This document shows positions 1,596 through 33,371 of a DNA stretch of 34,179 bases, in pieces; the first letter of the stretch is position 1, and each line of letters starts with the position of its first letter. The stretch is from a virus (lineage: Duplodnaviria; Heunggongvirae; Uroviricota; Caudoviricetes): IMG/VR virus record IMGVR_UViG_2802429245_000003; one strand, given 5' to 3'. The notes beneath the pieces were generated by a model that worked only from the letters and a program-made list of their open reading frames with translations, was not told the DNA's origin and did no database searches. Position numbers and translations under genes: made by a program.

Positions 1596-1892
1596 TTAAC
1601 GGGTCAACAGCCAGACCAGCAGACACGCCACCATCGGCACAGCAAAATCCATCAGGCTTGCCACATCCCATACACGTGGATCAAAACCGCCCCACCACGG
1701 CATGTTGCTACGTTTCCCTTTCCCAAACTTTTCTATCCAGCGATATTCTGCCTGGGTGTGTTCACGCGCAATGAAGAACGTACAACCAGCTATCGCTCCG
1801 TAAGCCCAGTATCCTGTTATTATTCCGACGAAACATTGCACAATTATTGATGCAATAGCATGGATAAAAGGAGAATAGTCAATCTTATTCAT
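1596..1892 (-). CDS. small predicted inner-membrane protein immediately downstream of tailspike
   Basis: 98-aa ORF with hydrophobic segments (IASIIVQCFVGIITGYWAYGAIAGCTFF; VASLMDFAVPMVACLLVWLL); its ATG overlaps the tailspike stop (ATGA), suggesting translational coupling. Family not recognised. Confidence 0.45.
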   Translation of the reverse strand: MNKIDYSPFIHAIASIIVQCFVGIITGYWAYGAIAGCTFFIAREHTQAEYRWIEKFGKGKRSNMPWWGGFDPRVWDVASLMDFAVPMVACLLVWLLTR

Positions 1893-4648
1893 CAGAATGG
1901 CACCGTTTCAATAATCACACAGGGGCGCATTACATCCCCCATGCGGTTCTCAAGATACAGATAACCAGCACCATTTGGTGGCATAAATGATACGGTGAAT
2001 TTACCATCTGATCCCGTTGTACCAGTTAAGACAGATGAACTAAGTTCCACGTTAATTTTGTTAGACGACTGTTGTGGTGCAAAGTCTTTATCCGACGATA
2101 CTCCAAGCAACATCCCAACCGCCCTATAATTTCTGTCTCGTTCATGGTCGAATAAAGAAACTATAGCCATTTTGGTTTTTGTCGAAATAGGTATGCGCAG
2201 TGCCTGATCGTCGTTCAGGGTGGCAAAGAACTTATTGTCTCCCAGCCTGACAAACTCACCAGGGTTTATGATTTGCGCCGTGCGCAGGTCATACATACTG
2301 AACTGATTAGCTGCGCCACCGTCAAGATAGAATCGGTTTCCACCCTGATCGGAGATGTTTTTAAGAACCTTGGTCCCCTCACAGCGAATAAATGAGAACT
2401 CATCATTCCCTGTATCCTGAGAGGATACGTAAACTACATTTCCGCCAATGATCAGGTTTTCTAATGTCAGCGCGTCACCGGCCCCGGACGCAATAATCCC
2501 AGCCAGCGTGACCTTTTTACCTATTGAGTTTTTCAGAGTGACTGGCAAGGTGCGAATATAGCCGTCATCTGCTCCACAGAACAATTCCAGCAACCCAATT
2601 GCTCGATAATAGGGTCTGGTGTCTGTGCTGTAACTATCTGCATAGTTGTACCCAATCTCGGTAAACGTGTCGTCATACACGAGGCCGTCTATTGTCAGCC
2701 CTCCTCCGTAGGTAAGGCGAGCGCAGCAGCGCGCCACATAACCGTGCACACGACAATCTTTGAGTGTTTCTCGCAAACCACGGAACGCGTATGGCAGCCA
2801 GCAATCAACGACTAAGCAATTTGTATAGTTGGAGCCGTATGCCGCTCCATGTGACCCCATACCCGAATTTTGGGTTTTGCCTACAGGCCAGAAAGCAGTT
2901 CCGGTATAGTCAACGCCTCCACCAGAGACGACGCTATTCACAACTTGCGTCTCCCAACTAATCATCTGCGCACCGATAATATCGATACCGCGACGGCAGC
3001 GATATGTCTTAACATTTTCAACCATGGCACCGAAACACTGGTTGATGCTAATTCCGTATCCTGTCCCATTCCAAGTATCATAACCTCGGTTTGCATCCAT
3101 CGCGGTAACATCGCGGAGCACAGGAAGGTATGATCCTCGTACACGCAGACAGGTGTCAGAAAAACCACTAACAGTTATACCCTCTATCAATGTATCGGTA
3201 GAATACAATACATCCAGCCCTCTGAATCCAACGTCACCGGCCTTAGCATTGCTAGTGAGCTCGCGTGAAATAACAAACGCTCCTGTCATTTTAAACGTAA
3301 TAGGTTTGGATATGGTAACTACAGTCGCCCATTCCATCTTGAACTGATCTCCAGCAGCTGGAATGTTATTGAAAGCAGACTGACGACCACCGATTGTCAA
3401 CAAGTTTCCGCTATAATGCGAAATGTATCTGGATTGACCAGCATTAGCGCCAGTTGTGAACGTAATACGGACATTTGCATTTTCGCGGGTCAATGTTATA
3501 CCTGAAACTGTAAATGAAGCGCCGCTAGTTGCCGCTGTAACGGTTCCATATTGTATGTTTGACGCCGGAGCGGCATACCGCAACGTGTTGCACAGGCCAA
3601 CACGCTTTGTAGCGTGATTTACAGATGAGACTTTGCAAACCTGCCCCTCTATATCCTGTCCACGATTATCTGTCTGAATTAGCCTGGATGTCTGGAAGCA
3701 AACGAGATCCCCGACTTCAATATCAGCAGTATCGGATAGGGTAACAACACCAGCATTTCTGGCAGCATCAACTACGAGGTTAACTTGTTTTAAAAATACC
3801 CCTCGTATACGAATAGCGTAATCCGCGTCATAATTAGTAGCGTCAGGTGTGACTTTAGTGCTAACAAGGTGTACCCGCCCGTTCGCAATCCATTCAGTTA
3901 CAGCTTGGCTATCTTGGGATCGCTTGACATGAATTGACGTATAATTATACACACCTTGTTCAAACACCAGTCTGCGCCCCTCATCTACTGCTACCTGAGA
4001 CGCTGCCTGAATCGGGATTGTGTAGTCAGAGATTCCATCTCCCTGTTCACAGAACCACAACAATAAAATATCGCCATCATATTCCCGCTTCCATCGCCTA
4101 CCGATAGCGTCGACCAATACAGTACCTCCATTATCATCAGTGGTTGAGTCGGTATCGTCACGCACGAATATGCCATCTCCACCATCGTTAATTACAGAGC
4201 GTCCATAGCACTGGATTTTAATTCCTGCGCCAGAGTACGAACGGATGTCGTCGTAATTTCCCGCACCTATAAGCGACGCCCCACCAACCCCAGCTAATTC
4301 CATACTGAACTGATCAGGGTCATATTTAAGAACATTAGGAAAATAGAACTGCTGCGTGCCATATGCATCATATACAGCCATAGAATGGCCTTGCACAGTT
4401 ACAAACTTGGCAATCTGTCCGTTATATACCGGATATCCGGCAGCGTTAATGATGATTGGTTGAGATACAGGAACGTGAGAACCGTCTTCATTCTCCACAT
4501 AAACCTGAATCTGGTTTTCTGGATTTACCGGGTCAGTGTCAATTTTACCGATATAAATTTTGCCATTGGCAACTGCTTTAAAAGAGCGCGCCATAGTGAA
4601 GAGTTGCGATGGCATACTCACTACAACATTGGCTGTAATGTCTGTCAT
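1892..4648 (-). CDS. tailspike protein: P22-type N-terminal head-binding domain fused to a long divergent receptor-binding/depolymerase-like domain
   Basis: 918 aa. N-terminus [11 protein letters not shown]...[33 protein letters not shown]...[24 protein letters not shown] is near-identical in pattern to P22 gp9 head-binding domain; the rest does not resemble P22 gp9. Last gene of the late operon. Confidence 0.9.
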
Positions 4649-20116: not shown

Positions 20117-20374
20117 CTACTTCGCTTTTGCTTCCGCTCGCTTACGCCGGCGCTCTTCTTTCCTCTCGGCTTTTGCCATGTCCATGAATGCCTGCATGAT
20201 CGAGTTCCGCATCATGTAGCTAACAAAGTGATGATTGACACAGCCGTTGAGGCGCAGCTGCTCGCCAAACTCATCCACCGAGGCCAATGCTTCCATCATG
20301 CCCTTCTCGCCTTTCATGAACTCTGAGAAGTCGCGCCCCGCTCTGGAGGCGCATTCAATGACACGATCACTCAT
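20117..20374 (-). CDS. hypothetical protein
   Basis: 85-aa ORF with basic C-terminus (KAERKEERRRKRAEAKAK); start overlaps the KilA-N gene stop. Confidence 0.45.
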   Translation of the reverse strand: MSDRVIECASRAGRDFSEFMKGEKGMMEALASVDEFGEQLRLNGCVNHHFVSYMMRNSIMQAFMDMAKAERKEERRRKRAEAKAK

Positions 20375-20868
20375 CCCGGAAGCCCGGGGATCGTTATCTG
20401 CAGCTGGTTAGCCAGGGAGTTAATCTCAGCGACCAACACTGGCTTCGTATAGCGCCATGCCGCCAGCCCTTGTCCACAGAAGCTCGCCATATCTTTTTTC
20501 TGATCAAACTCATGACACTTCATATTGAGCTGCGCACTTAAGCTGTTACGATGCTGAAGTTCTCCGGTGAAGTAGTCATCCAGGACTTTATAGGCTGCAT
20601 ATTTAAATCCGGGGTTTAGCCATGCTGCATAATCATAAGCAACAAACTTCCCGCCATATGTTCCACCGTGTACACCGCGCTCAGTAAAAACCACAGATTC
20701 GTGGTTTTTCTCCAGCTCGGCTAAGAACTCTTTGGTCTGCTTGTTTCGCAGGTAGTGGTACGGAGATTCAGATTCACTTTTACCACTGGCTTTCCACATA
20801 TCAGTGAGGCAGATCATGCCATCTTCACCGATACGAATTGGTTGATTGAAGAGGGTTAATGATTTCAT
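20371..20868 (-). CDS. KilA-N domain protein
   Basis: 165 aa; N-terminal FNQPIRIGEDGMICLTDMWKASGK…KEFLAELEK fits the KilA-N pattern. Confidence 0.6.
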   Translation of the reverse strand: MKSLTLFNQPIRIGEDGMICLTDMWKASGKSESESPYHYLRNKQTKEFLAELEKNHESVVFTERGVHGGTYGGKFVAYDYAAWLNPGFKYAAYKVLDDYFTGELQHRNSLSAQLNMKCHEFDQKKDMASFCGQGLAAWRYTKPVLVAEINSLANQLQITIPGLPG

Positions 20869-24066: not shown

Positions 24067-24229
24067 GATTCCTCCTTGCTGCCAGTCGCAACCATTTTTT
24101 ATCAACCAGGCTGGCGGTATATCCGAGCAGTGTTGGTATTTCGGATGGTTTCAGCTCAGGCTTACGCTTACGACGATTTGGTACTTTGTAGATGTGTCCG
24201 TTCATGACACGAATAAGCGGTGTAGCCAT
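24059..24229 (-). CDS. ninE: NinE-like protein
   Basis: 56-aa [59 protein letters not shown], found by manual translation; start overlaps ybcN stop. Confidence 0.75.
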   Translation of the reverse strand: MATPLIRVMNGHIYKVPNRRKRKPELKPSEIPTLLGYTASLVDKKWLRLAARRNHG

Positions 24230-24684
24230 TACGCCTCCTGCTTATCACGCAGCAGCTGGAACTCGCAGCTCTGCGGAATAGTCAGGTGGCAGCCAATATT
24301 CATCGCCCAGGCTTCAACCTTACACAGGAAGACATACATCTCTCCGGTATCGAGGTCGGAGGTATGGCGTAACGACTGAATAGTGGTGATTTCACCGGTT
24401 ATGACATCAACCAGTTCTTTGGTTTCATAACCGAGGTATGTGTGTTTGAGAGCATCTTTTACCCATGCTGCAGTAGCGAACGATTTCCCCCTGCTTATGA
24501 GGTATTCACTGATTTCGCTGTACCACATGTGGCTAAGTGCATTCTGGGAAAGACTGCGTCTCTCGCGCCACGGTTTAAGCACCATGCGAAAGCATTTTCC
24601 GTCCTCCAGATAAGGCTGGATCTGCTGGCCGATAGCGGTGAAGTTCCCGCGATGTAATTTGATGCCGTCTTGTGGGAGGTTCAC
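24229..24684 (-). CDS. ybcN: YbcN-like protein (DLP12 nin-region protein)
   Basis: 151 aa, [61 protein letters not shown]… matches E. coli YbcN from memory. Confidence 0.8.
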
Positions 24685-24805
24685 GCTTCACCTCCGCAGA
24701 GGTCAAACGTTGGATACAAAGAACCACAGGTGCATTTCTGCATCTGTGAAGGGAGAAGAGAGTTTAGATTGTATGTGCGCATAAACGTCCCCGTTTAGCG
24801 CAGAA

Positions 24806-24838
24806 GTCACCGGAGTTGTTCAGGCTCCGGTGTTTTTA
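24806..24838 (+). terminator. terminator-like hairpin at the edge of the AT-rich island
   Basis: CACCGGAG-N9-CTCCGGTG followed by TTTTTATTG on the plus strand; no obvious plus-strand gene upstream, so its role is unclear. Confidence 0.35.
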
Positions 24839-25267
24839 TTGTGACAGCTTGATAATTAAAAATCAATAAGCCTTCAAAGGACATAAACAAGCTAATAGCT
24901 TCTACTTTAGTTTATACGATATTACCTTAAGAGAATTAACATAATCAACGAAACCACTCATATATTTATCTAAGATTCCTTTATTACACAGAACATATTA
25001 CGACATAATTCCAATATGCATTTTTTGTAAAATAACTGCAGAGATACCTAGCGCTATGCTGTTAACTTGCAGTAATATTCAACATATCAATCTTTTATGG
25101 GAGCTTAAACCACTTCTTATTTTTTCATCTAAGTAATATATTGCAAATGCATATACCTGGATAATCAGAACAAGAGATTCCAATCACCATAACTTCACAT
25201 TAAAAAAAATATTAATGTACACTTAATTATGTGTGCATACTTTAACAATACATAATACATTTTATTT

Positions 25268-25798
25268 TTACGATACATGGATTTTAAAAGCTGTAAAAGA
25301 CCACTTCCTCAGAAGTGGCTTGCAGACTGCCCCTATAAGCAAGCGACTGTCATATTCTGCGTTCGACTCTAGCAACTCCGGTAACTGTTCGTGTGCTTGC
25401 TCCATCTTTTCCTGATGTCTAACATACCGCCTGATAATTTTTTCGGTCGTGCCTACTATATCGACAAAGTAACCTCGTGAACCCAAATTGTTTCCCCATA
25501 ACTTCGTCCTGATATGCGGGAATAGATTGTAGAGCCTGATTTCGCTGCAACCTTTTAGGTTTTCTCATCAGAGTAGATATTGAGATTTATGACGGCACGA
25601 TTACTACAAAATGCAATGATCTGGCTGTACACTTAAATCCGGAACCTCGCAATCTTTTATTCCACGCAGAATACAAATGGTTCTGTACAGCTCCTTGTCC
25701 AATTTATCTCTCAGAATCCTAAAGCGGTACTTTGGCGCCCAGACTGTGTGATATTTGCAACGCCAATATACATATGATGAACTTCTGTAAAACCCCAT
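25268..25798 (-). pseudogene. tnpA: IS200/IS605-family tnpA (Y1 transposase) disrupted by in-frame stop codons
   Basis: Two same-frame ORF pieces (WRCKYHTVWAPKYR…DHCIL and RGYFVDIVGTTEKIIRRYVRHQEKMEQ) align to IS200 TnpA; the segment between them reads through TAG, TAA and TGA-TGA in the same frame. Confidence 0.6.
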
Positions 25799-26151
25799 GT
25801 CAGTTTTTCTCCTTTTACTTGTGGTGAGTAAGCAGAGATATTCAGATATGGGAATTCTTCAGGTTATAGCCTTACAGGAGCAATCACCAGCCCCCTTTGC
25901 GGTGGTTAATATTTAATTGTATTCCACATAGTGCTTACTAATCAACCAAAAACACAACATACTGAACACTTCGCTTAACTCCACCTATTGCCGTAGATGC
26001 ATTAATTGAAGTAGAATATTTTCCAGGAGATGTAATCTCAGATAAAAGTAAATTACGCACATTGACTCTTAAATAGGTTTATTTCTAAAAATAAAACTCC
26101 ATATATTTATTCTTAACATAAAACCAGAAAGATGCATAACAGGATGAAGCC

Positions 26152-27471
26152 ATGGATAAAAAATACACAGATAAATTAGAAGCTTGCGAGTACTTGCAAA
26201 ATGTTGACATTTGGCTTGATAATGGAAATGTTGACATGTTTAAAGTATCAGATATTTTAAACAATCTGTTGAAATTAGGTGATTTTGAGAAATTTGACCA
26301 TACACTTTCACTTTTAAAAGCTGAAAGCTTTGCAGAGAAAATAAAGTTTCGTCTTTCACGAGTTGAAAGTCAACGGGATAGTATATTACACGTTATCAGA
26401 GAAGGTGATAAGAATAAAAACCTTAGAAAAATAATACTAAAATCATATGACACAAAAAAAACAGAAATAAAATCACTATTCAATATATTCTCCAGAGAAA
26501 GCGGGCTATATTTTAGGAATAACCATGGAAATCACTACAGTTATTTTGAAGATGATTTCTTAGATTACAGCAATACTGTAAAAAACACACTTAGAGACAA
26601 AGGTTTTGCGAAAAAACTTTTACAGCACAATCAAGAAAAATTTAGAATTCTCGATGATGCGATAGTTCATACTTTCAATCATAATTTCTATGCCATTTCA
26701 GATAAAAATGGTTATTACGACTCAACAAATGCAGCCCGTCTGGCAAAACTTAGCCATGTTAATTATATTAATAACGACAATGAAATAAGATATATTGATA
26801 AGGCTATTTTTTTGCCCATAGACCATGCATGCAATAACTATTATCATGCTCTTAGTGAATGTTTCGGAGGATTGAAATTTATAACAGAATTACCTGATGA
26901 CATTCCTATAGTCTTTACGGAAGACAGATTTAATGTATTGGATTTTATTGCATCGCGCCTATGTATAGACCGCAAACGTTTTATTTCTATACAAACACTT
27001 GCTAATACTCGAATTAAAAAGGCACTACAATTATATCCATATAGTTTTAACTGGAGTGAAGATATTTTTCATTTTTTTAAAAAAATATCATACCCACAAA
27101 CAACAGACTCTAAAATATATATTTCAAGGAGAAAGTCAAGCCGTGGCCCATTAAATGAATTTGAAGTTGAAAATGAGCTTAAAGAATTAGGTTTTGATAT
27201 ACTATACGCTGAAGACCTTGACTTTGCGCAACAGGTTTCAATTTTCTCAAATGCAAGCATCCTTATTGGCCCTCATGGCGCAGGCCTCACCAACATTCTT
27301 TTTATGCCTAAGAATAGCACCCTTATCGAAATATTTAACAGTGAATATATCCAACCTGATTTCTATCTAAGATCTCGCCATAATAACATGAAATATGCAT
27401 GTACCATTCAATTTAATAATACCTTCAATATCGAAGAGATAAAAGAAATCATAGAAAGGTGTCAAGAATAA
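26152..27471 (+). CDS. DUF563 / glycosyltransferase family 61-like protein (AT-rich moron)
   Basis: 439 aa; C-terminal signature …ISRRKSSRGPLNEFEVENELKELGF…ASILIGPHGAGLTNILFMP… typical of GT61/DUF563 enzymes; AGGA ribosome-binding site; AT content much higher than the surrounding phage backbone; no obvious signal peptide or TM helix. Confidence 0.65.
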   Translation: MDKKYTDKLEACEYLQNVDIWLDNGNVDMFKVSDILNNLLKLGDFEKFDHTLSLLKAESFAEKIKFRLSRVESQRDSILHVIREGDKNKNLRKIILKSYDTKKTEIKSLFNIFSRESGLYFRNNHGNHYSYFEDDFLDYSNTVKNTLRDKGFAKKLLQHNQEKFRILDDAIVHTFNHNFYAISDKNGYYDSTNAARLAKLSHVNYINNDNEIRYIDKAIFLPIDHACNNYYHALSECFGGLKFITELPDDIPIVFTEDRFNVLDFIASRLCIDRKRFISIQTLANTRIKKALQLYPYSFNWSEDIFHFFKKISYPQTTDSKIYISRRKSSRGPLNEFEVENELKELGFDILYAEDLDFAQQVSIFSNASILIGPHGAGLTNILFMPKNSTLIEIFNSEYIQPDFYLRSRHNNMKYACTIQFNNTFNIEEIKEIIERCQE

Positions 27472-28111
27472 GTTCTCAATACTCTTTTCATTAGAGCTTG
27501 TATATTAGCCAGTTACATTAAATCAATGAAATTTATACCATCTAACAAAAAAGTTGGGTGGTATACCTCAACAACTTGATTTATAAATAAATTTAACAAA
27601 AAACCAGCATTAACTTAACGGTAATATCTCTAAGTGAATAATTTATCATATATGTTTCTCTCCTTTGATATATCCATAGCCAGCGTAGCTGTTCATTGCT
27701 CTCATTACTAATTTTCTCAGGTTTCTCATCGTGCCCCTCCACACACTAAAGGGTATGACCTGTTCGGCTGATGGATTCCTCAACTTACTTACACTTGTAG
27801 AGTACATAAACCTAGAGCTAAAGAGCAGATCTCATAACTGTATCAATACTCTCCATCAGTTTAAAAAAACTCCCCACCACGAATAATATTATCATCGAAA
27901 AGTCATTATATCTTGTGTTCCTAAGCATGTGCCGTATATATCTTCAAGAAAGCCGCAGCATAACTCATCAAGCACTGCCAAATCCGGTCTCATTTGACGT
28001 AAATTTAATCACACATTATACTTTTCCCCACAGTTTTATTAATTGTTACAGCATCTAATCTCATGCTCTTAAACTACCATTTACCGTCACGACCCGTTTC
28101 ATCGCGGCACT

Positions 28112-28282
28112 CTACCGACACTCCTCAAAAATCAGGTTCGTGCTCACCTTTTCTTCCTGTGCCATTTTAGCCGCAGCCTGATTTATACTGGTTACTGTTG
28201 CGCCTGTTACCGCAGCAACGTCCTGCGCACAGAAGTTCTTATGAGTCCCCAGGTAATGAATAATTGCCTCTTTGACCGTCAT
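28112..28282 (-). CDS. ren: Ren-like protein, internally shortened
   Basis: 56-aa ORF MTVKEAIIHYLGTHKNFCAQDVAAVTGATVTSINQAAAKMAQEEKVSTNLIFEECR matches both ends of lambda Ren (96 aa) but lacks the central segment; ATG overlaps P stop. Confidence 0.65.
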   Translation of the reverse strand: MTVKEAIIHYLGTHKNFCAQDVAAVTGATVTSINQAAAKMAQEEKVSTNLIFEECR

Positions 28283-28980
28283 ACCCTTGCTCCTTTCAGC
28301 CCAAACTTAGCTTTGATTTCTGCGATCTTCGCCAGAGCCTGTGCACGATTTAGAGGTCTACCGCCCATGACAGGGATTTGTTTTACTGGTTCAGGTATAG
28401 CCTCACCACGGTTAATTCGCGCTGTCATACAGGACAGTTCATCGGCAGCCTTGCGCCGTAATTCCGCATCAGTAAGCGCATTGGCCCGCATGTTCTGGTA
28501 CAGGTTGGTAACCAGCCAGTAGTGCGCGTTTGATTTCCACGGATAAGACTCTGCATCTGGATACAGGCCACGCTTCCGACAATACTCATAGACCATATCA
28601 ACCAGCTCGCTGACGTTTGGCAGCCCGACGTTAACGGATGCTTCTTCCCGGCACCAGGCGACAAACTGCCCGGGTGATGGCAGGAATGGTCGATTCTGCC
28701 GACGGGCTACGCGCATTCCAGCGTTAACCTGTTCCATCGTGGTGATCCCATTTTCCCGGAAAGCCAGAACCCACTGGCGGCGGATTTCGTTCAGTTCATT
28801 CTGGTCCCGGTTAGCCAGGCTCGCCGGGAAAGTTGCCAGTAACTGGCTGAACACACCATTGATAATCTGCGCTACCTGCTGTACCTGCGGCTTTTCGTCG
28901 TACTGTTCCGGCATGTTATTGGCGATCCGGCGCATCTGCTCACGGTCAAAATTAACCATCTGTGCGGCGATGTTTTTCAT
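28279..28980 (-). CDS. P: replication protein P (DnaB helicase loader), lambda type
   Basis: 233 aa, essentially lambda P throughout (MKNIAAQMVNFDREQMRRIANNMPEQYDEKPQVQQVAQIINGVFSQLLATFPASLANRDQNE…). Confidence 0.95.
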   Translation of the reverse strand: MKNIAAQMVNFDREQMRRIANNMPEQYDEKPQVQQVAQIINGVFSQLLATFPASLANRDQNELNEIRRQWVLAFRENGITTMEQVNAGMRVARRQNRPFLPSPGQFVAWCREEASVNVGLPNVSELVDMVYEYCRKRGLYPDAESYPWKSNAHYWLVTNLYQNMRANALTDAELRRKAADELSCMTARINRGEAIPEPVKQIPVMGGRPLNRAQALAKIAEIKAKFGLKGARV

Positions 28981-29996
28981 AGCTCCACCCCGTAAATCCA
29001 GTCAGTGTTCGTCAGGTCGAGTTTTGGTTTTCCGGCTGTCACGCCTGCCTGTTGCTTGTTTCGGTTGATTTCGAGCTGGGTCCACTTGTCGCGGAGTTTG
29101 GCCGGACTTAGCACGTTACCGGACCAGAAGTTGTCCTGGCATGCCCAGCGGAACAGCACGCACATGTCGCGGTGGTTACGTCCGTCACGTTCACGCATCA
29201 GGCGGATATCGTTAGCCCACCCTGCAAAATTCGGTTTTCTGGCTGATGGCGCGATGGTCTTCACCATGTCAAACATCCACTCTGCGGCGGTCAGGTCTTC
29301 TGCTGTCCCCCACTTGCTGCCGCTCTGAATTGCAGCATCTGGTTTCACCACAGGAAGATCGTTTTCTGGTTGGTCAGAGGATTCGCCAGAATTCTCGGAC
29401 GAAAAAGATTTTATATTGTCTTTTGTTAGTTTGTCTTTTGTGTTTACCTTATTCGGGTAAACGCCTTTACCTGATTTGGGTAAACTTTTCTTACCTGATT
29501 CAGGTAAATTTACCTCTTTCAGGTAAACTTTATTTTTCTTACCTGATTCGGGTAATGTTGACCATTCACTGACCACATTATTAATACCGATATTCCGCCC
29601 GCTCTGAATCAAAATCCCACGCTTTACCAGAACACTTTTTGCAGCAGAACACTTGTGCGGCAATATCCCGGTCAATTCGGACAGTTGCTCGTTGCTCACC
29701 CAATCCAGTTTTTTATTAAAGCCATATGTTTTGCGCATGACAGCCAGGAAGACCAGAAGCTGGTGCTGTGTTAATCCGGCCAGCATCACAGCTTCCAGCA
29801 ACTCATTTGCAATGCGCGTATAACCATCATCGAGATCTGCCACGCGCGGCTCCTTTTGTGCCGCATCCGGCACTGGAAAATTGAATATCTCAGCAGTGTT
29901 TGCCATAATTCCTCCCGCAATGAGTGTGTTACGATTTGCACCTGAAAGTCGGTTCTGTTCCAGCAGACCGGCTTTCGCCATTTCTGAACCTGTCAT
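28977..29996 (-). CDS. O: replication initiator O, lambda-type C-terminus with divergent origin-binding N-terminus
   Basis: 339 aa; C-terminal two-thirds (…SSENSGESSDQPENDL.VVKPDAAIQSGSKWGTAEDLTAAEWMFDMVKTIAPSARKPNFAGWANDIRLMRERDGRNHRDMCVLFRWACQDNFWSGNVLSPAKLRDKWTQLEINRNKQQAGVTA.KPKLDLTNTDWIYGV.L) matches lambda O; the N-terminal domain differs and contains the iterons. Confidence 0.95.
   Translation of the reverse strand: MTGSEMAKAGLLEQNRLSGANRNTLIAGGIMANTAEIFNFPVPDAAQKEPRVADLDDGYTRIANELLEAVMLAGLTQHQLLVFLAVMRKTYGFNKKLDWVSNEQLSELTGILPHKCSAAKSVLVKRGILIQSGRNIGINNVVSEWSTLPESGKKNKVYLKEVNLPESGKKSLPKSGKGVYPNKVNTKDKLTKDNIKSFSSENSGESSDQPENDLPVVKPDAAIQSGSKWGTAEDLTAAEWMFDMVKTIAPSARKPNFAGWANDIRLMRERDGRNHRDMCVLFRWACQDNFWSGNVLSPAKLRDKWTQLEINRNKQQAGVTAGKPKLDLTNTDWIYGVEL
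29444..29555. repeat. replication origin iterons inside the O gene: five 17-bp TTACC-N7-GGTAA repeats next to an AT-rich tract
   Basis: TTACCTTATTCGGGTAA (29444), TTACCTGATTTGGGTAA (29467), TTACCTGATTCAGGTAA (29491), TTACCTCTTTCAGGTAA (29510), TTACCTGATTCGGGTAA (29539); AT-rich stretch at 29401-29443 in the direction of O translation, as at ori-lambda. Confidence 0.8.
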
Positions 29997-30790: not shown

Positions 30791-30900
30791 TATCAATTCC
30801 TATTGGTATTGCAATGAACAAATAATAGCAATGCGTATTAATCATAACAATAGCAAAACGTGTTTTGACCATCAATACGCAAGCGTATAAATTAAAACTT
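30791..30900. promoter_or_regulatory. immunity control region (OR-like) with divergent PR/PRM and repeated AATAGCAA(T) operator motifs
   Basis: AATAGCAAT at 30825-30832 and AATAGCAAA at 30849-30856; plus-strand TTGACC (30865-30870) then TATAAA (30886-30891) places a PRM-like promoter whose transcript would start only a few nt before the cI ATG (near-leaderless, as for lambda cI). Confidence 0.5.
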
Positions 30901-31593
30901 ATGAAAAAAGAAACTCTTGCTGATCGCTTAAACCTAGCGATGGAACAATCTGGAATGTCTCAAGGCGCTCTTGCAAAGGCGTCTGGCGTAGCTCAACCCA
31001 CAATCTGGAGACTGACAAGCGGCAACGCGCGCGGCTCAACAAAAATTGTTGAAATAGCTAATGCATTGGGTGTTCGAACAGAGTGGCTCTCATCAGGCAT
31101 AGGCCCGATGAGAAATGACGGTCAACAATTAGGGAAGCCTACTGCCAACCATCCCAAATACTTCAAGATTGACGTTCTTGATATAGAAGTGAGTGCCGGG
31201 CCGGGAGTCATCAACCGTGAGTTTGTAGAAGTTCTACGCTCGGTTGAGTACTCATTTGACGATGCTCGTCACATGTTCGATGGCAGGAAGGCAGAAAATA
31301 TCCGCATCATTAACGTACGCGGTGACAGCATGTCAGGAACGATCGAACCAGGTGATCTTCTGTTCGTTGATATCACTGTTAAATCTTTCGACGGTGATGG
31401 TATCTATGCGTTTCTGTATGACGACACCGCCCATGTAAAGCGCCTGCAAATGATGAAGGATAAGCTGCTGGTTATCTCTGATAACAAGAGCTACTCACCG
31501 TGGGACCCGATCGAGAAAGACGAGATGAACCGCGTGTTCATCTTCGGGAAAGTCATCGGGAGCATGCCGCAGACATATAGAAAGCATGGGTAG
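30901..31593 (+). CDS. cI: CI-like prophage repressor (HTH plus LexA/S24 autopeptidase domain)
   Basis: 230 aa from ATG at 30901; N-terminal HTH (MSQGALAKASGVAQPTIWRL) and C-terminal S24-like domain (…RGDSMSGTIEPGDLLFVD…HVKRLQ…) with the Ser/Lys dyad context. Confidence 0.85.
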   Translation: MKKETLADRLNLAMEQSGMSQGALAKASGVAQPTIWRLTSGNARGSTKIVEIANALGVRTEWLSSGIGPMRNDGQQLGKPTANHPKYFKIDVLDIEVSAGPGVINREFVEVLRSVEYSFDDARHMFDGRKAENIRIINVRGDSMSGTIEPGDLLFVDITVKSFDGDGIYAFLYDDTAHVKRLQMMKDKLLVISDNKSYSPWDPIEKDEMNRVFIFGKVIGSMPQTYRKHG

Positions 31594-31722: not shown

Positions 31723-32862
31723 ATGGCAGCGGTTGAATTTCAATTGTCTAGGAAGATGATTGATTGGATAGCAAATTCTCAAGGAGTTTCTATCGAAACT
31801 CTTGCTGACCAAGTCATGCCCAAAAAGATTAATAAATTTCTTAACGGAGTGGTAAGTAAATCCGCAGCAGAAAAACTGGCAAAAATTGGAGGAATCCCTT
31901 TCGGTTTTTTATTTCTTGAAACGCCACCAACTCCAGCCAAACCCAAGATCCCTGACTTAAGGCAAGCTATAAATAGCCGTGAGTTAGGAAAAGATTTTTT
32001 TGATGTTTACTATGATATAGAATATAAACTTGAGTGGTACAAAGACTATTTAAGAGAAAATGGTAATGATGATCCACTCGATTTTATTGGTAAATTTAAA
32101 TTTAATAGAAAATTAAATTATAAGGTTGTTGCTACAGACATAGCAAACACAATACATTTTGATATACAAAAAGAGATAAAAAATGTCACTTTTGAGAGCT
32201 ATTTTTCTAAAGTGGCAAAACTAATAGAAGACACTGGCGTATTAGTTTTCAAGAATGGTGTTGTGGGTAATAATAATAAAAGAAAACTTGACACGCGAGA
32301 GTTTCGTGGTTTCTGTATATCTGATAGCGTTGCTCCGATCATTTTTGTAAATAGCTCGGACGCGTTATCTGCGCAGGTATTTACATTATTTCATGAGGTG
32401 GCTCATCTTTGGCTTGGAGTCGATGGAGTCTCTGGGTGGGACACAGAAAAAAACATAGAATCTTTTTGTAATAAAGTTGCTGCTGAAATCTTAATGCCTG
32501 ATAATCTCTTCAAATCTTTCTGGCTTAATGCATCCAGCGATAATAATTATTATCGAGTAAAAGAGGTTTCTAAGTTATTTAAGGTTAGTGATTTCGCTTG
32601 TGCAATCAAAGCGTTACAATTAGATTTGATAGAAAGAAACACTTTGGAGATAATTAAAGATCAAGCTTACAATAAGCCCAAAAAAGAATCTAATGGTGGT
32701 TCTTTCTTTAACACATTACCTGTTCGTAACAGTCCAAAACTTACGAATATAATAATTTCCAAAGCAATGTCTCAACAATTACCATTAAGGGAAGCAGGCG
32801 TACTGCTAAATGTAAAAGCAGATACAGTTGTTGAATTTTATAAAAAACGAGAATCTCTATGA
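31723..32862 (+). CDS. HTH plus ImmA/IrrE-family (DUF955, M78-like) zinc metallopeptidase, first gene of a two-gene module in the rexAB slot
   Basis: 379 aa; N-terminal HTH-like region; HExxH motif in FTLFHEVAHLWLG with a downstream Glu; AGGTG ribosome-binding site; markedly AT-rich codon usage compared with cI. Confidence 0.7.
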   Translation: MAAVEFQLSRKMIDWIANSQGVSIETLADQVMPKKINKFLNGVVSKSAAEKLAKIGGIPFGFLFLETPPTPAKPKIPDLRQAINSRELGKDFFDVYYDIEYKLEWYKDYLRENGNDDPLDFIGKFKFNRKLNYKVVATDIANTIHFDIQKEIKNVTFESYFSKVAKLIEDTGVLVFKNGVVGNNNKRKLDTREFRGFCISDSVAPIIFVNSSDALSAQVFTLFHEVAHLWLGVDGVSGWDTEKNIESFCNKVAAEILMPDNLFKSFWLNASSDNNYYRVKEVSKLFKVSDFACAIKALQLDLIERNTLEIIKDQAYNKPKKESNGGSFFNTLPVRNSPKLTNIIISKAMSQQLPLREAGVLLNVKADTVVEFYKKRESL

Positions 32863-33371
32863 TTCATAATGGAAAATTCTTAATTGATAGTAATGTCTTC
32901 ATAGAGGCAAAAAACTTTGCATATAACTTCAATTATTGCAAAATATTTTGGGATTTTCTTCTCGCTTTACACATGAATGGTCTGATTTATAGCATTAATG
33001 CTGTAAAAAAAGAACTATGTGCAAAAGATGATCCATTGTGTAAATGGATTAAAGAAGAGTTACCATCATCATTCTTCGAAGATGAGCATAGTTCAATAGA
33101 AAATTATGCAAAGTTAATAAATTGGTCAACTAAATTAGATGTTACCGAAAAGGCAAAGTTTGACTTTGCAAGCCATGAAAAAGCAGATGCTTTTTTAATA
33201 GCCCATGCGATGACACATGGATATACTATTATTACCCATGAGAAACCATCCGGTGGCAAACCTAAAAAAAGAATAATGATCCCGGATGCTGCTGCTTCTC
33301 ACGGCGTTAAGACATTAACACTATATGAATTTCTTCCAAGATACGCTAGTCATAATTTTTCTTTGAAATAA
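32859..33371 (+). CDS. DUF4411-like (predicted PIN-like) protein, second gene of the module; candidate toxin/effector
   Basis: 170 aa; start overlaps the upstream stop (ATGA); N-terminal FLIDSNVFIEA resembles the first acidic strand of PIN-like domains; followed directly by a strong terminator. Confidence 0.6.
   Translation: MIHNGKFLIDSNVFIEAKNFAYNFNYCKIFWDFLLALHMNGLIYSINAVKKELCAKDDPLCKWIKEELPSSFFEDEHSSIENYAKLINWSTKLDVTEKAKFDFASHEKADAFLIAHAMTHGYTIITHEKPSGGKPKKRIMIPDAAASHGVKTLTLYEFLPRYASHNFSLK

Follow-up and report, generated by a model that had tools for sequence, protein, structure and literature searches.

The DNA stretch analyzed here, referred to as the window, is the virus record IMGVR_UViG_2802429245_000003, which corresponds to the entire contig PTSN01000031.1 (34,179 bp) of assembly GCA_002965865.1. 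The window is a P22-like prophage with portal, coat, and gp7/gp20/gp16-type injection proteins, SieA, Mnt/Arc, and a head-binding tailspike; the sources of this exact tailspike protein assign it to "unclassified Escherichia." Between ren and ninB, an AT-rich island carries an intact gene for a soluble-looking glycosyltransferase of family 61 (GT61) beside a decayed insertion sequence (IS). Relatives of this gene in other prophages are linked to one tailspike family, and we argue below that the enzyme may modify the receptor polysaccharide of that tailspike. The features of the island and its surroundings, and the tailspike gene itself, are as follows.

24229 to 24684, minus strand: ninB, from which the early-right operon continues to Q
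24681 to 24782, minus strand: orf33, part of the lambdoid backbone (from translation)
24808 to 24832, backbone: inverted repeat/hairpin (hairpin scan), upstream of orf33 in the phage 82 annotation
24850 to 25292, no strand: noncoding AT-rich left flank, GC of ~0.32
25293 to 25907, minus strand: full-length, decayed IS200/IS605-family element (alignment to an intact Escherichia coli copy)
25367 to 25798, minus strand: tnpA remnant with a local frameshift, four stop codons, and loss of the HUH motif
25908 to 26151, plus strand: region upstream of the GT61 gene (consensus scan and direct reading)
26152 to 27471, plus strand: intact GT61 glycosyltransferase gene, 439 amino acids (aa) (Pfam, AlphaFold2, and motifs)
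27472 to 28111, no strand: noncoding AT-rich right flank, 640 bp (GC profile)
28112 to 28282, minus strand: shortened ren, 56 aa, the right border of the cargo slot
28279 to 28980, minus strand: lambdoid gene P, early-right operon
28977 to 29996, minus strand: lambdoid gene O, early-right operon
1892 to 4648, minus strand: tailspike, 918 aa, with a P22 head-binding domain and a beta-helix receptor-binding/depolymerase domain

A sequence-only reading of the window had described an AT-rich island between ren and the nin region, and both the GC profile and the gene order agree with this description. GC content is ~0.49 to 0.51 between 23000 and 24800, falls to 0.29 to 0.41 between ~24800 and 28100, and returns to 0.51 to 0.56 beyond. 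The low GC of the ~3.4-kb interval first proposed (24685 to 28111) was upheld, but its leftmost ~160 to 190 bp are conserved lambdoid backbone; the segment from 24681 to 24832 has an 89.5% match to E. coli prophages, and the counterpart of its hairpin is annotated in phage 82 as a possible regulator-binding site. Since orf33 and the hairpin belong to the backbone, the foreign DNA starts at ~24850 and spans ~24850 to 28111 (about 3.3 kb). The long noncoding AT-rich flanks, also noted previously, were seen on either side of the IS and GT61 gene, and a sensitive-mode blastn search of 5,426 complete E. coli genomes returned nothing for either the left or the right flank. A weak terminator-like hairpin lies in the right flank (27553 to 27572, plus strand). 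No additional open reading frame (ORF) of at least 100 aa was found within the island. Structured RNA was considered and rejected, as the sole match (mir-1497) was subthreshold and spurious.

The position between ren and ninB is a slot for cargo expressed in lysogens, since other lambdoid phages place either PD-lambda-1 (PhiR26_1, likewise on the opposite strand) or acyltransferase and lipoprotein genes (PhiR30_1) there. The ren/P junction of the window has 92 to 94% nucleotide identity to lambda, 434, and Stx phages. The shortened ren presumably retains ~41 N-terminal residues of lambda Ren together with a small part of its C terminus, and a ren gene of identical form, 56 aa long, is also called in the other E. 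coli island copies. The early operon O-P-ren-ninB runs on the minus strand, so that the GT61 gene is antisense to it.

The island had also been said to hold an IS200-like element with a disrupted tnpA, and alignment bears this out: the element is full length, with 86% nucleotide identity to intact E. coli copies, and its transposase gene is broken by a frameshift and four stop codons. A Y1 transposase fragment (25604 to 25798, minus strand) has a Y1_Tnp match over its N-terminal 64 aa. The hairpin near the tnpA start is weakened, while the opposite end retains a 7-bp stem. Judged by its sequence, the element is a dead member of the IS200/IS605 family, and the eight other E. coli island copies that were read all carry the same dead element. 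IS200/IS605 elements mobilize solely the DNA between their own ends. The suggestion that the IS delivered the GT61 gene had to be dropped: the gene is separated from the IS by 244 bp, and no IS accompanies the copies in Citrobacter and Phytobacter; the element is therefore a dead bystander rather than the vehicle of GT61.

The GT61 gene itself was as first described, a 439-aa plus-strand gene with the expected signature (IGPHGAGLTN) and a candidate ribosome-binding site (AGGA, 26141 to 26144) 7 nucleotides upstream of the ATG. Farther upstream, a consensus scan yielded a putative promoter-like site (TTGCCG-18-TAGAAT, 25988 to 26017). The assignment to the GT61/DUF563 family is backed by agreement among Pfam score, fold, and motifs. 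The protein matches Pfam PF04577 (Glyco_transf_61) with 83.2 bits (cutoff of 27; E = 2.7e-23) over profile positions 1 to 137 of 137, and its only sequence matches in the PDB are EOGT and POMGNT2 (HMMER). An AlphaFold2 model built from 16 homologues had a predicted local distance difference test (pLDDT) score of 91.3 and a predicted template modeling (pTM) score of 0.86. In a Foldseek search of the PDB, the 16 matches at E ≤ 2e-8 were all POMGNT2 chains (best E of ~1e-9), and the next match had an E value of 0.014. Template modeling (TM) scores against POMGNT2 were just 0.36 to 0.42, because the window protein has an extra N-terminal region. The predicted fold is of the GT-B type, with solved GT61 enzymes as its nearest structures.

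Members of GT61 share the motifs NxxHxxxD, RxxxRxxxN, and HGAxxT, and an Asn-Arg-Arg triad binds the UDP phosphates, with a His as the proposed catalytic base (PMC13123520; bioRxiv 10.1101/2025.07.18.665579). In the window protein, the first motif reads N229-Y-Y-H232-A-L-S-E236, with Glu in place of Asp, and N229, H232, and E236 are invariant in the 16 homologues. We equated N229 and H232 with POMGNT2 N163 and H166 from motif spacing and the Pfam domain start rather than from a residue-level structural alignment. The second motif, R326-x4-R331-x3-N335, supplies the two Arg residues, which are invariant among the homologues, while N335 is kept in most. R326 and R331 pair in the HMMER alignment with EOGT Arg residues five apart, the spacing of R372 and R377, whose roles have been described (PMC13123520). 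The third motif is H375-G-A-G-L-T380, in which HGAG is invariant and HGA aligns with the HGA of both EOGT and POMGNT2. N229, H232, E236, R326, R331, and HGAG remain constant in homologues down to 26% identity.

The highest 19-residue Kyte-Doolittle hydropathy of the protein is 1.08 and its grand average of hydropathy is -0.47, with no membrane segment; these values and the lack of Gtr partner genes agree with the earlier impression of a soluble enzyme. The accompanying remark that a soluble glycosyltransferase is unusual in a prophage held only in part, as there are precedents for soluble prophage enzymes acting on ABC-exported polymers (NeuO and TarP, discussed below). About 18 protein clusters cover at least half of the GT61 length, including part of the ~220-residue N-terminal region; the remaining matches are restricted to the C-terminal donor domain, and distant GT61 proteins are fusions to TPR repeats. 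Taken from its motifs and model, the protein is a real and probably active GT61 enzyme, for which family membership leads us to expect inverting transfer from a UDP-sugar, and we have high confidence that the gene encodes a functional accessory product.

Copies of the gene are rare. Draft E. coli assemblies contain a 99%-identical protein with an intact ORF in at least 49 blocks. The eight other E. coli loci that were read all occupy the ren-ninB slot at 97 to 99% DNA identity and differ from the window by two small indels. The same cargo was not found in 50,697 phage genomes (DNA and protein searches), in IMG/VR, or in 5,426 complete E. coli genomes. A genome-wide scan for relatives was dominated by the generic HGAGLTN motif, with only four close loci being useful. 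Between the window and the E. coli copies there are 4 nonsynonymous and 4 to 5 synonymous changes (dN/dS of ~0.2, from small counts). The proportion of nonsynonymous differences (pN) was 0.19 and that of synonymous differences (pS) 0.81 against Citrobacter; across the Citrobacter, Phytobacter, and metagenome orthologues, pN was 0.19 to 0.22 and pS 0.81 to 0.88, with synonymous sites saturated. Because the ORF is intact across copies and pN is low relative to pS, while the adjacent tnpA is dead, these comparisons indicate that the GT61 gene is maintained by long-term purifying selection. Phase variation through the A8 and T7A7 runs within the gene was rejected, as the E. coli copies read all give the same 439-aa product.

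Wherever the context of a full-length nonphage relative could be read, the gene was in region 2 of a kps-type (ABC-transporter-dependent) capsule locus. The five loci are listed below with identity to the window protein.

Pantoea: kps locus, 52% identity
Leclercia: kps locus, 36% identity
Acinetobacter marinus: kps locus, 36% identity
Metagenome contig: kps locus, 53% identity
E. coli plasmid pAL.H8 (mobilizable, IncY): kps locus, 53% identity

A nucleotide-sugar dehydrogenase gene (ugd-like) adjoins or lies near GT61 in all five loci and in a short Endozoicomonas contig, and a UDP-galactopyranose mutase gene (glf) is present in four of the five. According to published surveys, the capsule loci of Neisseria weaveri and the marine Vibrio sp. 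KMM 8419 likewise include GT61/DUF563 genes. The homologues are surrounded by kpsMT, kpsED, and kpsCS and the window gene is not, which makes it, by sequence, a derivative of kps region-2 genes and not one itself. On pAL.H8 (NZ_CP082350.1, 15628 to 36897), a complete kps-type capsule locus is flanked by IS5 copies and reads kpsD, kpsM, kpsT, kpsE, a sulfotransferase-like gene, a two-domain GT2 gene, glf, GT61, an acyltransferase gene, a nucleotide-sugar dehydrogenase gene, a GT2 gene, kpsC, and kpsS; this gene order is shared with the Pantoea locus and the metagenome contig.

The strongest clue to function lay outside the interval first singled out, in an evolutionary tie between the GT61 gene and the tailspike gene at 1892 to 4648. 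The nearest GT61 relatives (64 to 69% identity), from Citrobacter freundii, Phytobacter palmae, and a metagenome, lie tail to tail with a tailspike gene at the prophage end, 43 to 66 bp away. P22-type and Sf6-type phages place their seroconversion genes at this same tailspike-adjacent end. We compared five contexts of the phage clade: the window, two from Citrobacter (a P22-like phage and a siphovirus-like prophage), one from a prophage of Phytobacter, and a copy cut short by an IS next to the conjugative-transfer genes TraI/TraD. The same tailspike receptor-binding family is present in 5/5 of these, and the convergent arrangement at 43 to 66 bp in 4/5. Compared with the tailspikes adjoining all phage-associated GT61 homologues, the window's receptor-binding domain has 61 to 90% identity. 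In the nearest relatives, this domain is 61 to 69% identical to window tailspike residues 118 to 918, while the N-terminal adaptors differ, being either P22 head-binding (Head_binding match of E = 2e-67 in the window) or Tail_spike_N on a siphovirus-like tail; in the remaining case, beside TraI/TraD, the copy is truncated by an IS. The tailspike domain was absent from the 50,697 phage genomes and the 5,426 complete E. coli genomes, and its family comprises ~25 clusters among 5.8 billion proteins. Since both proteins are this rare, their five independent co-occurrences are, on the sequence evidence, not due to chance. A neighbor-joining tree places the four GT61 proteins linked to tailspikes together in a single clade within the kps-locus genes, which points to a single capture of GT61 from a kps locus by phages, followed by cotravel with the tailspike domain. 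Homology between the island and the relatives' loci is confined to the GT coding region (tblastn/blastn).

The AlphaFold2 model of the tailspike receptor-binding domain is a beta-helix (pLDDT of 84.5). Its best fold matches are depolymerase S2-4 of Klebsiella phage K64-1 and the capsule lyase for Klebsiella K1 (E of ~1e-17 to 1e-18), as well as Acinetobacter AP22 gp54 and the Pseudomonas O-antigen lyases of phi297 and LKA1, so that the modeled domain resembles capsule depolymerases and lyases. The Phytobacter palmae chromosome carries an 864-aa tailspike-like depolymerase gene, 73% identical to the window receptor-binding domain, directly after kpsF, kpsE, kpsD, kpsC, and kpsS in a capsule locus; the same genome carries the GT61-tailspike prophage. 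In addition, a T7-like phage contig has an enzyme of another family in the same convergent slot, a soluble GT32-like glycosyltransferase (Gly_transf_sug, DXD motif, E = 3.1e-13); the tailspike encoded beside it shares 80% identity with the window in the receptor-binding domain. Taken together, the fold matches, the kps-locus homologue, and the GT32-like gene indicate that the site next to this tailspike family houses enzymes directed at the polysaccharide on which the tailspike acts.

Several further genes were observed near these tailspikes. Next to the Phytobacter palmae depolymerase gene is a DUF6395 gene with an SGGxDS PP-loop motif. In the Citrobacter prophages, a 441-aa gene with a GGSMGG serine-hydrolase-like motif is divergent from GT61; it is absent from the window, and its product had no match in Pfam, PADLOC, PHROGs, or PDB sequences. 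It may encode a second polysaccharide-modifying enzyme of the ancestral module. No remnant of this gene or of a tailspike 3' end was found in the island by tblastn/blastn. In the window, a 98-aa hydrophobic ORF (1596 to 1892, minus strand) begins at the tailspike stop codon and matches phrog_1443 (E = 1.5e-49); other P22-like E. coli prophages keep it downstream of their tailspikes as well. Past this ORF, the next ~1.5 kb holds short ORFs only, where a sister assembly has an IS-type DDE transposase gene.

The observations on enzyme family, catalytic motifs, solubility, purifying selection, capsule-locus origin, and tailspike linkage can be assembled into a single account, which goes beyond them in inferring that lysogens express the gene, which acceptor and donor sugar the enzyme uses, and that exclusion results. 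The island would be an accessory cassette ("moron") in the variable ren-ninB slot with one working gene, GT61, captured once by phages from region 2 of a kps-type capsule locus. Its own promoter would drive transcription of the gene against the direction of the repressed early operon; because of that orientation, and with a ribosome-binding site and promoter-like site of its own, lysogens probably produce GT61. The enzyme, working on the cytoplasmic side of the membrane, would transfer a sugar from a UDP-sugar onto the growing polymer prior to its export. The acceptor would be the surface polysaccharide that the phage's own tailspike binds and cleaves, with a uronic-acid-containing capsule or similar ABC-exported polymer likelier than an O unit linked to undecaprenyl diphosphate. 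The altered polymer would be a poor substrate for tailspikes of this family, so that the lysogen would be shielded from superinfection, released virions would not be wasted on lysogens, and the K/O serotype would change. We slightly favor the view that GT61 modifies the receptor polysaccharide of the tailspike, bringing about lysogenic conversion and superinfection exclusion. That its target is specifically a kps-type capsule containing uronic acid is a more tentative proposal, as the link to uronic acid is weak, coming only from the ugd-like neighbors and the lyase-like tailspike fold matches. Equally speculative is the broader idea that GT61 and the tailspike domain form a coevolving "cut it / re-decorate it" pair that crosses unrelated phage backbones (P22-like, siphovirus-like, and a fragment next to conjugative-transfer genes) and targets a little-known, sometimes plasmid-borne family of Enterobacterales kps-type capsules with galactofuranose and uronic acid.

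Several points weigh against this account. The window GT61 gene lies 21.5 kb from the tailspike gene, unlike in its relatives, and the contigs of the eight other E. coli island copies end before any tailspike. The capsule and O-antigen loci of the host lie elsewhere than on the window contig. In the reverse direction the association is not strict: a Leclercia prophage has this tailspike family with no adjacent glycosyltransferase gene, and none lies in the 845 bp that a contig covers downstream of a tailspike with 97% identity to that of the Citrobacter P22-like phage. The promoter candidate matches the consensus at just 9 of 12 positions. Furthermore, the solved GT61 relatives are protein or xylan glycosyltransferases, and family membership therefore leaves the acceptor unfixed. 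The sequence-only reading had allowed for modification of host glycans or proteins; the genomic context favors glycans, and proteins are retained as a rival target. Under that rival, GT61 would be an anti-phage defense or host-manipulation enzyme that glycosylates a host, invading-phage, or adhesin protein and exploits the ren-ninB hotspot. PD-lambda-1 does occupy the same slot in PhiR26_1, the sole solved sequence relatives (EOGT and POMGNT2) act on proteins or glycopeptides, the first ~220 residues, particular to the ~18 clusters, could be a novel acceptor-binding module, and the TPR-repeat fusions among distant GT61 proteins would fit as well. Yet no defense family in PADLOC-DB 2.0 matched GT61 at E ≤ 0.01, the full-length nonphage relatives with readable context are all in capsule loci, and the phage clade follows a depolymerase-type tailspike rather than a defense slot, with only the E. 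coli copy in ren-ninB. We consider a protein target of this kind unlikely.

A passive origin, with GT61 as inert cargo that arrived from a capsule locus by illegitimate recombination or with the IS200 element and has no present role, is slightly less probable still. It would account for the dead IS, for the ~1.3 kb of noncoding AT-rich DNA around the gene, for the distance from the tailspike in the window phage, and for the rarity of the island. It is difficult to reconcile with an ORF and catalytic motifs that are intact in every copy while tnpA decayed, with long-term purifying selection, with the position of the gene beyond the IS ends, and with retention of the same GT61 clade in at least four other mobile contexts. 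Glycosylation of the virion itself (the tailspike or other structural proteins), as carried out by some mycobacteriophages, draws on the adjacency of GT61 to the tailspike gene in four relatives and on the fact that GT61 enzymes can be protein O-glycosyltransferases. However, GT61 is always on the strand opposite the tailspike gene and late operon, the window gene is antisense to the early operon and hence not cotranscribed with structural genes, and the nearest nonphage relatives are capsule-locus genes; we regard this as highly improbable. Glycosylation of phage DNA was rejected on the basis of the capsule-locus ancestry of GT61 and because P22-like phages are not known to have a hydroxymethyl-base pathway.

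Two other regions of the window were noted. A second low-GC island (0.29 to 0.37; 31723 to 33371, plus strand) lies beside a cI-like repressor gene (30865 to 31593) and encodes a 379-aa M78 ImmA/IrrE-type peptidase (Pfam E = 1.2e-13, with matches to PADLOC capP at 9.8e-15 and to RmrA-like proteins) and a 170-aa DUF4411 protein (E = 1.1e-37). Located at the position of lambda rexAB, the two look like a defense or toxin-antitoxin pair. Between the lysis and packaging genes, a KilA-N and ORF11CD3 protein (20371 to 20868, minus strand) has a weak PADLOC match to PDC-S22 (E = 1.2e-8).

Lysogenic conversion of a receptor polysaccharide is an already known kind of system, and the preferred reading, modification of the tailspike receptor by GT61, can be compared with several examples. 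In E. coli K1, the P22-like prophage CUS-3 has a tailspike that degrades the kps (group 2) capsule and encodes NeuO, a soluble capsule-modifying enzyme whose modification increases phage resistance (PMC3046976, PMC13001214). The window would share with it a P22-like E. coli prophage, a tailspike, and a soluble enzyme for the same polysaccharide. In contrast, NeuO is a phase-variable O-acetyltransferase of polysialic acid, while the window enzyme is a GT61 glycosyltransferase in the ren-ninB slot with no length variation among the E. coli copies read. TarP, from Staphylococcus aureus prophages, is a glycosyltransferase that reglycosylates wall teichoic acid (PMC9650247). It resembles the window enzyme as a prophage glycosyltransferase with a surface glycopolymer as its target (proposed, in the case of GT61) and differs in its Gram-positive host and teichoic acid polymer. 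TarP is soluble and cytoplasmic, and wall teichoic acid is ABC exported and serves as an antigen and also as a phage receptor. The fold of TarP is GT-A, so that it would be unrelated to GT61 in sequence and fold. The window GT61 is homologous to neither NeuO nor TarP and would resemble both in function only.

The GtrABC and Oac modules of P22, Sf6, and SfX-type phages modify the tailspike receptor in lysogens, and GtrC of BTP1 is reportedly one such seroconversion factor. The GT61 relatives occupy the same site beyond the tailspike gene at the prophage end and would serve the same purpose. Gtr systems, however, consist of three membrane proteins (GtrA, GtrB, and polytopic GtrC) that transfer glucose in the periplasm from undecaprenyl phosphate-glucose, while the window has a single soluble protein with no gtrA or gtrB neighbors. 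Acinetobacter baumannii prophages carry Wzy polymerases and other capsule-modifying genes, proposed to act in prophage self-defense (PMC13228068). This is likewise lysogenic conversion of a capsule by prophage genes, but by membrane polymerases acting on a Wzy-dependent capsule rather than by soluble transferases.

Among GT61 proteins, the eukaryotic enzymes (POMGNT2, EOGT, plant XAT/XXT, and beta-1,2-xylosyltransferase) belong to the same Pfam family, provide the best structural match, and share the N-R-R/His and HGAxxT motifs. They have 13 to 19% identity over the aligned part, act in the secretory pathway on proteins or xylan, and differ from the window protein in its distinct ~220-residue N-terminal region and its E for D in NxxHxxxD. 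Proteobacterial G-R-R forms have been described (PMC13123520), from which the window protein differs in retaining the Asn. The kps-locus GT61/DUF563 genes, its nearest nonphage homologues (36 to 53% identity over full length), show the ancestral job, assembly of ABC-exported capsule; they sit inside a complete biosynthesis and export locus, while the window gene stands alone in a separate, tailspike-linked clade. To our knowledge, none of the bacterial GT61/DUF563 members has been biochemically characterized, and in the literature searched, no paper mentioned both "glycosyltransferase family 61" and "prophage." A soluble GT61 converter derived from kps loci that cotravels with one tailspike family over different phage backbones thus appears to be undescribed.

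If the cut-and-redecorate pair is real, this would be the first bacterial or phage GT61 with an assigned role, and the first K-antigen conversion in Gram-negative bacteria by a soluble cytoplasmic glycosyltransferase, as opposed to acetylation, Gtr, or Wzy. The depolymerase and its presumptive blocker are a matched pair that is directly testable, and a practical rule would follow, namely, to seek a tailspike-blocking enzyme beside the tailspike gene and in other cargo slots. Capsules and O antigens determine how strains are recognized by phages, antibodies, and vaccines. If one soluble prophage enzyme is able to rewrite an ABC-exported capsule, the capsule locus alone would not suffice to predict serotype or phage host range, a situation that TarP in S. 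aureus and prophage Wzy genes in A. baumannii already illustrate.

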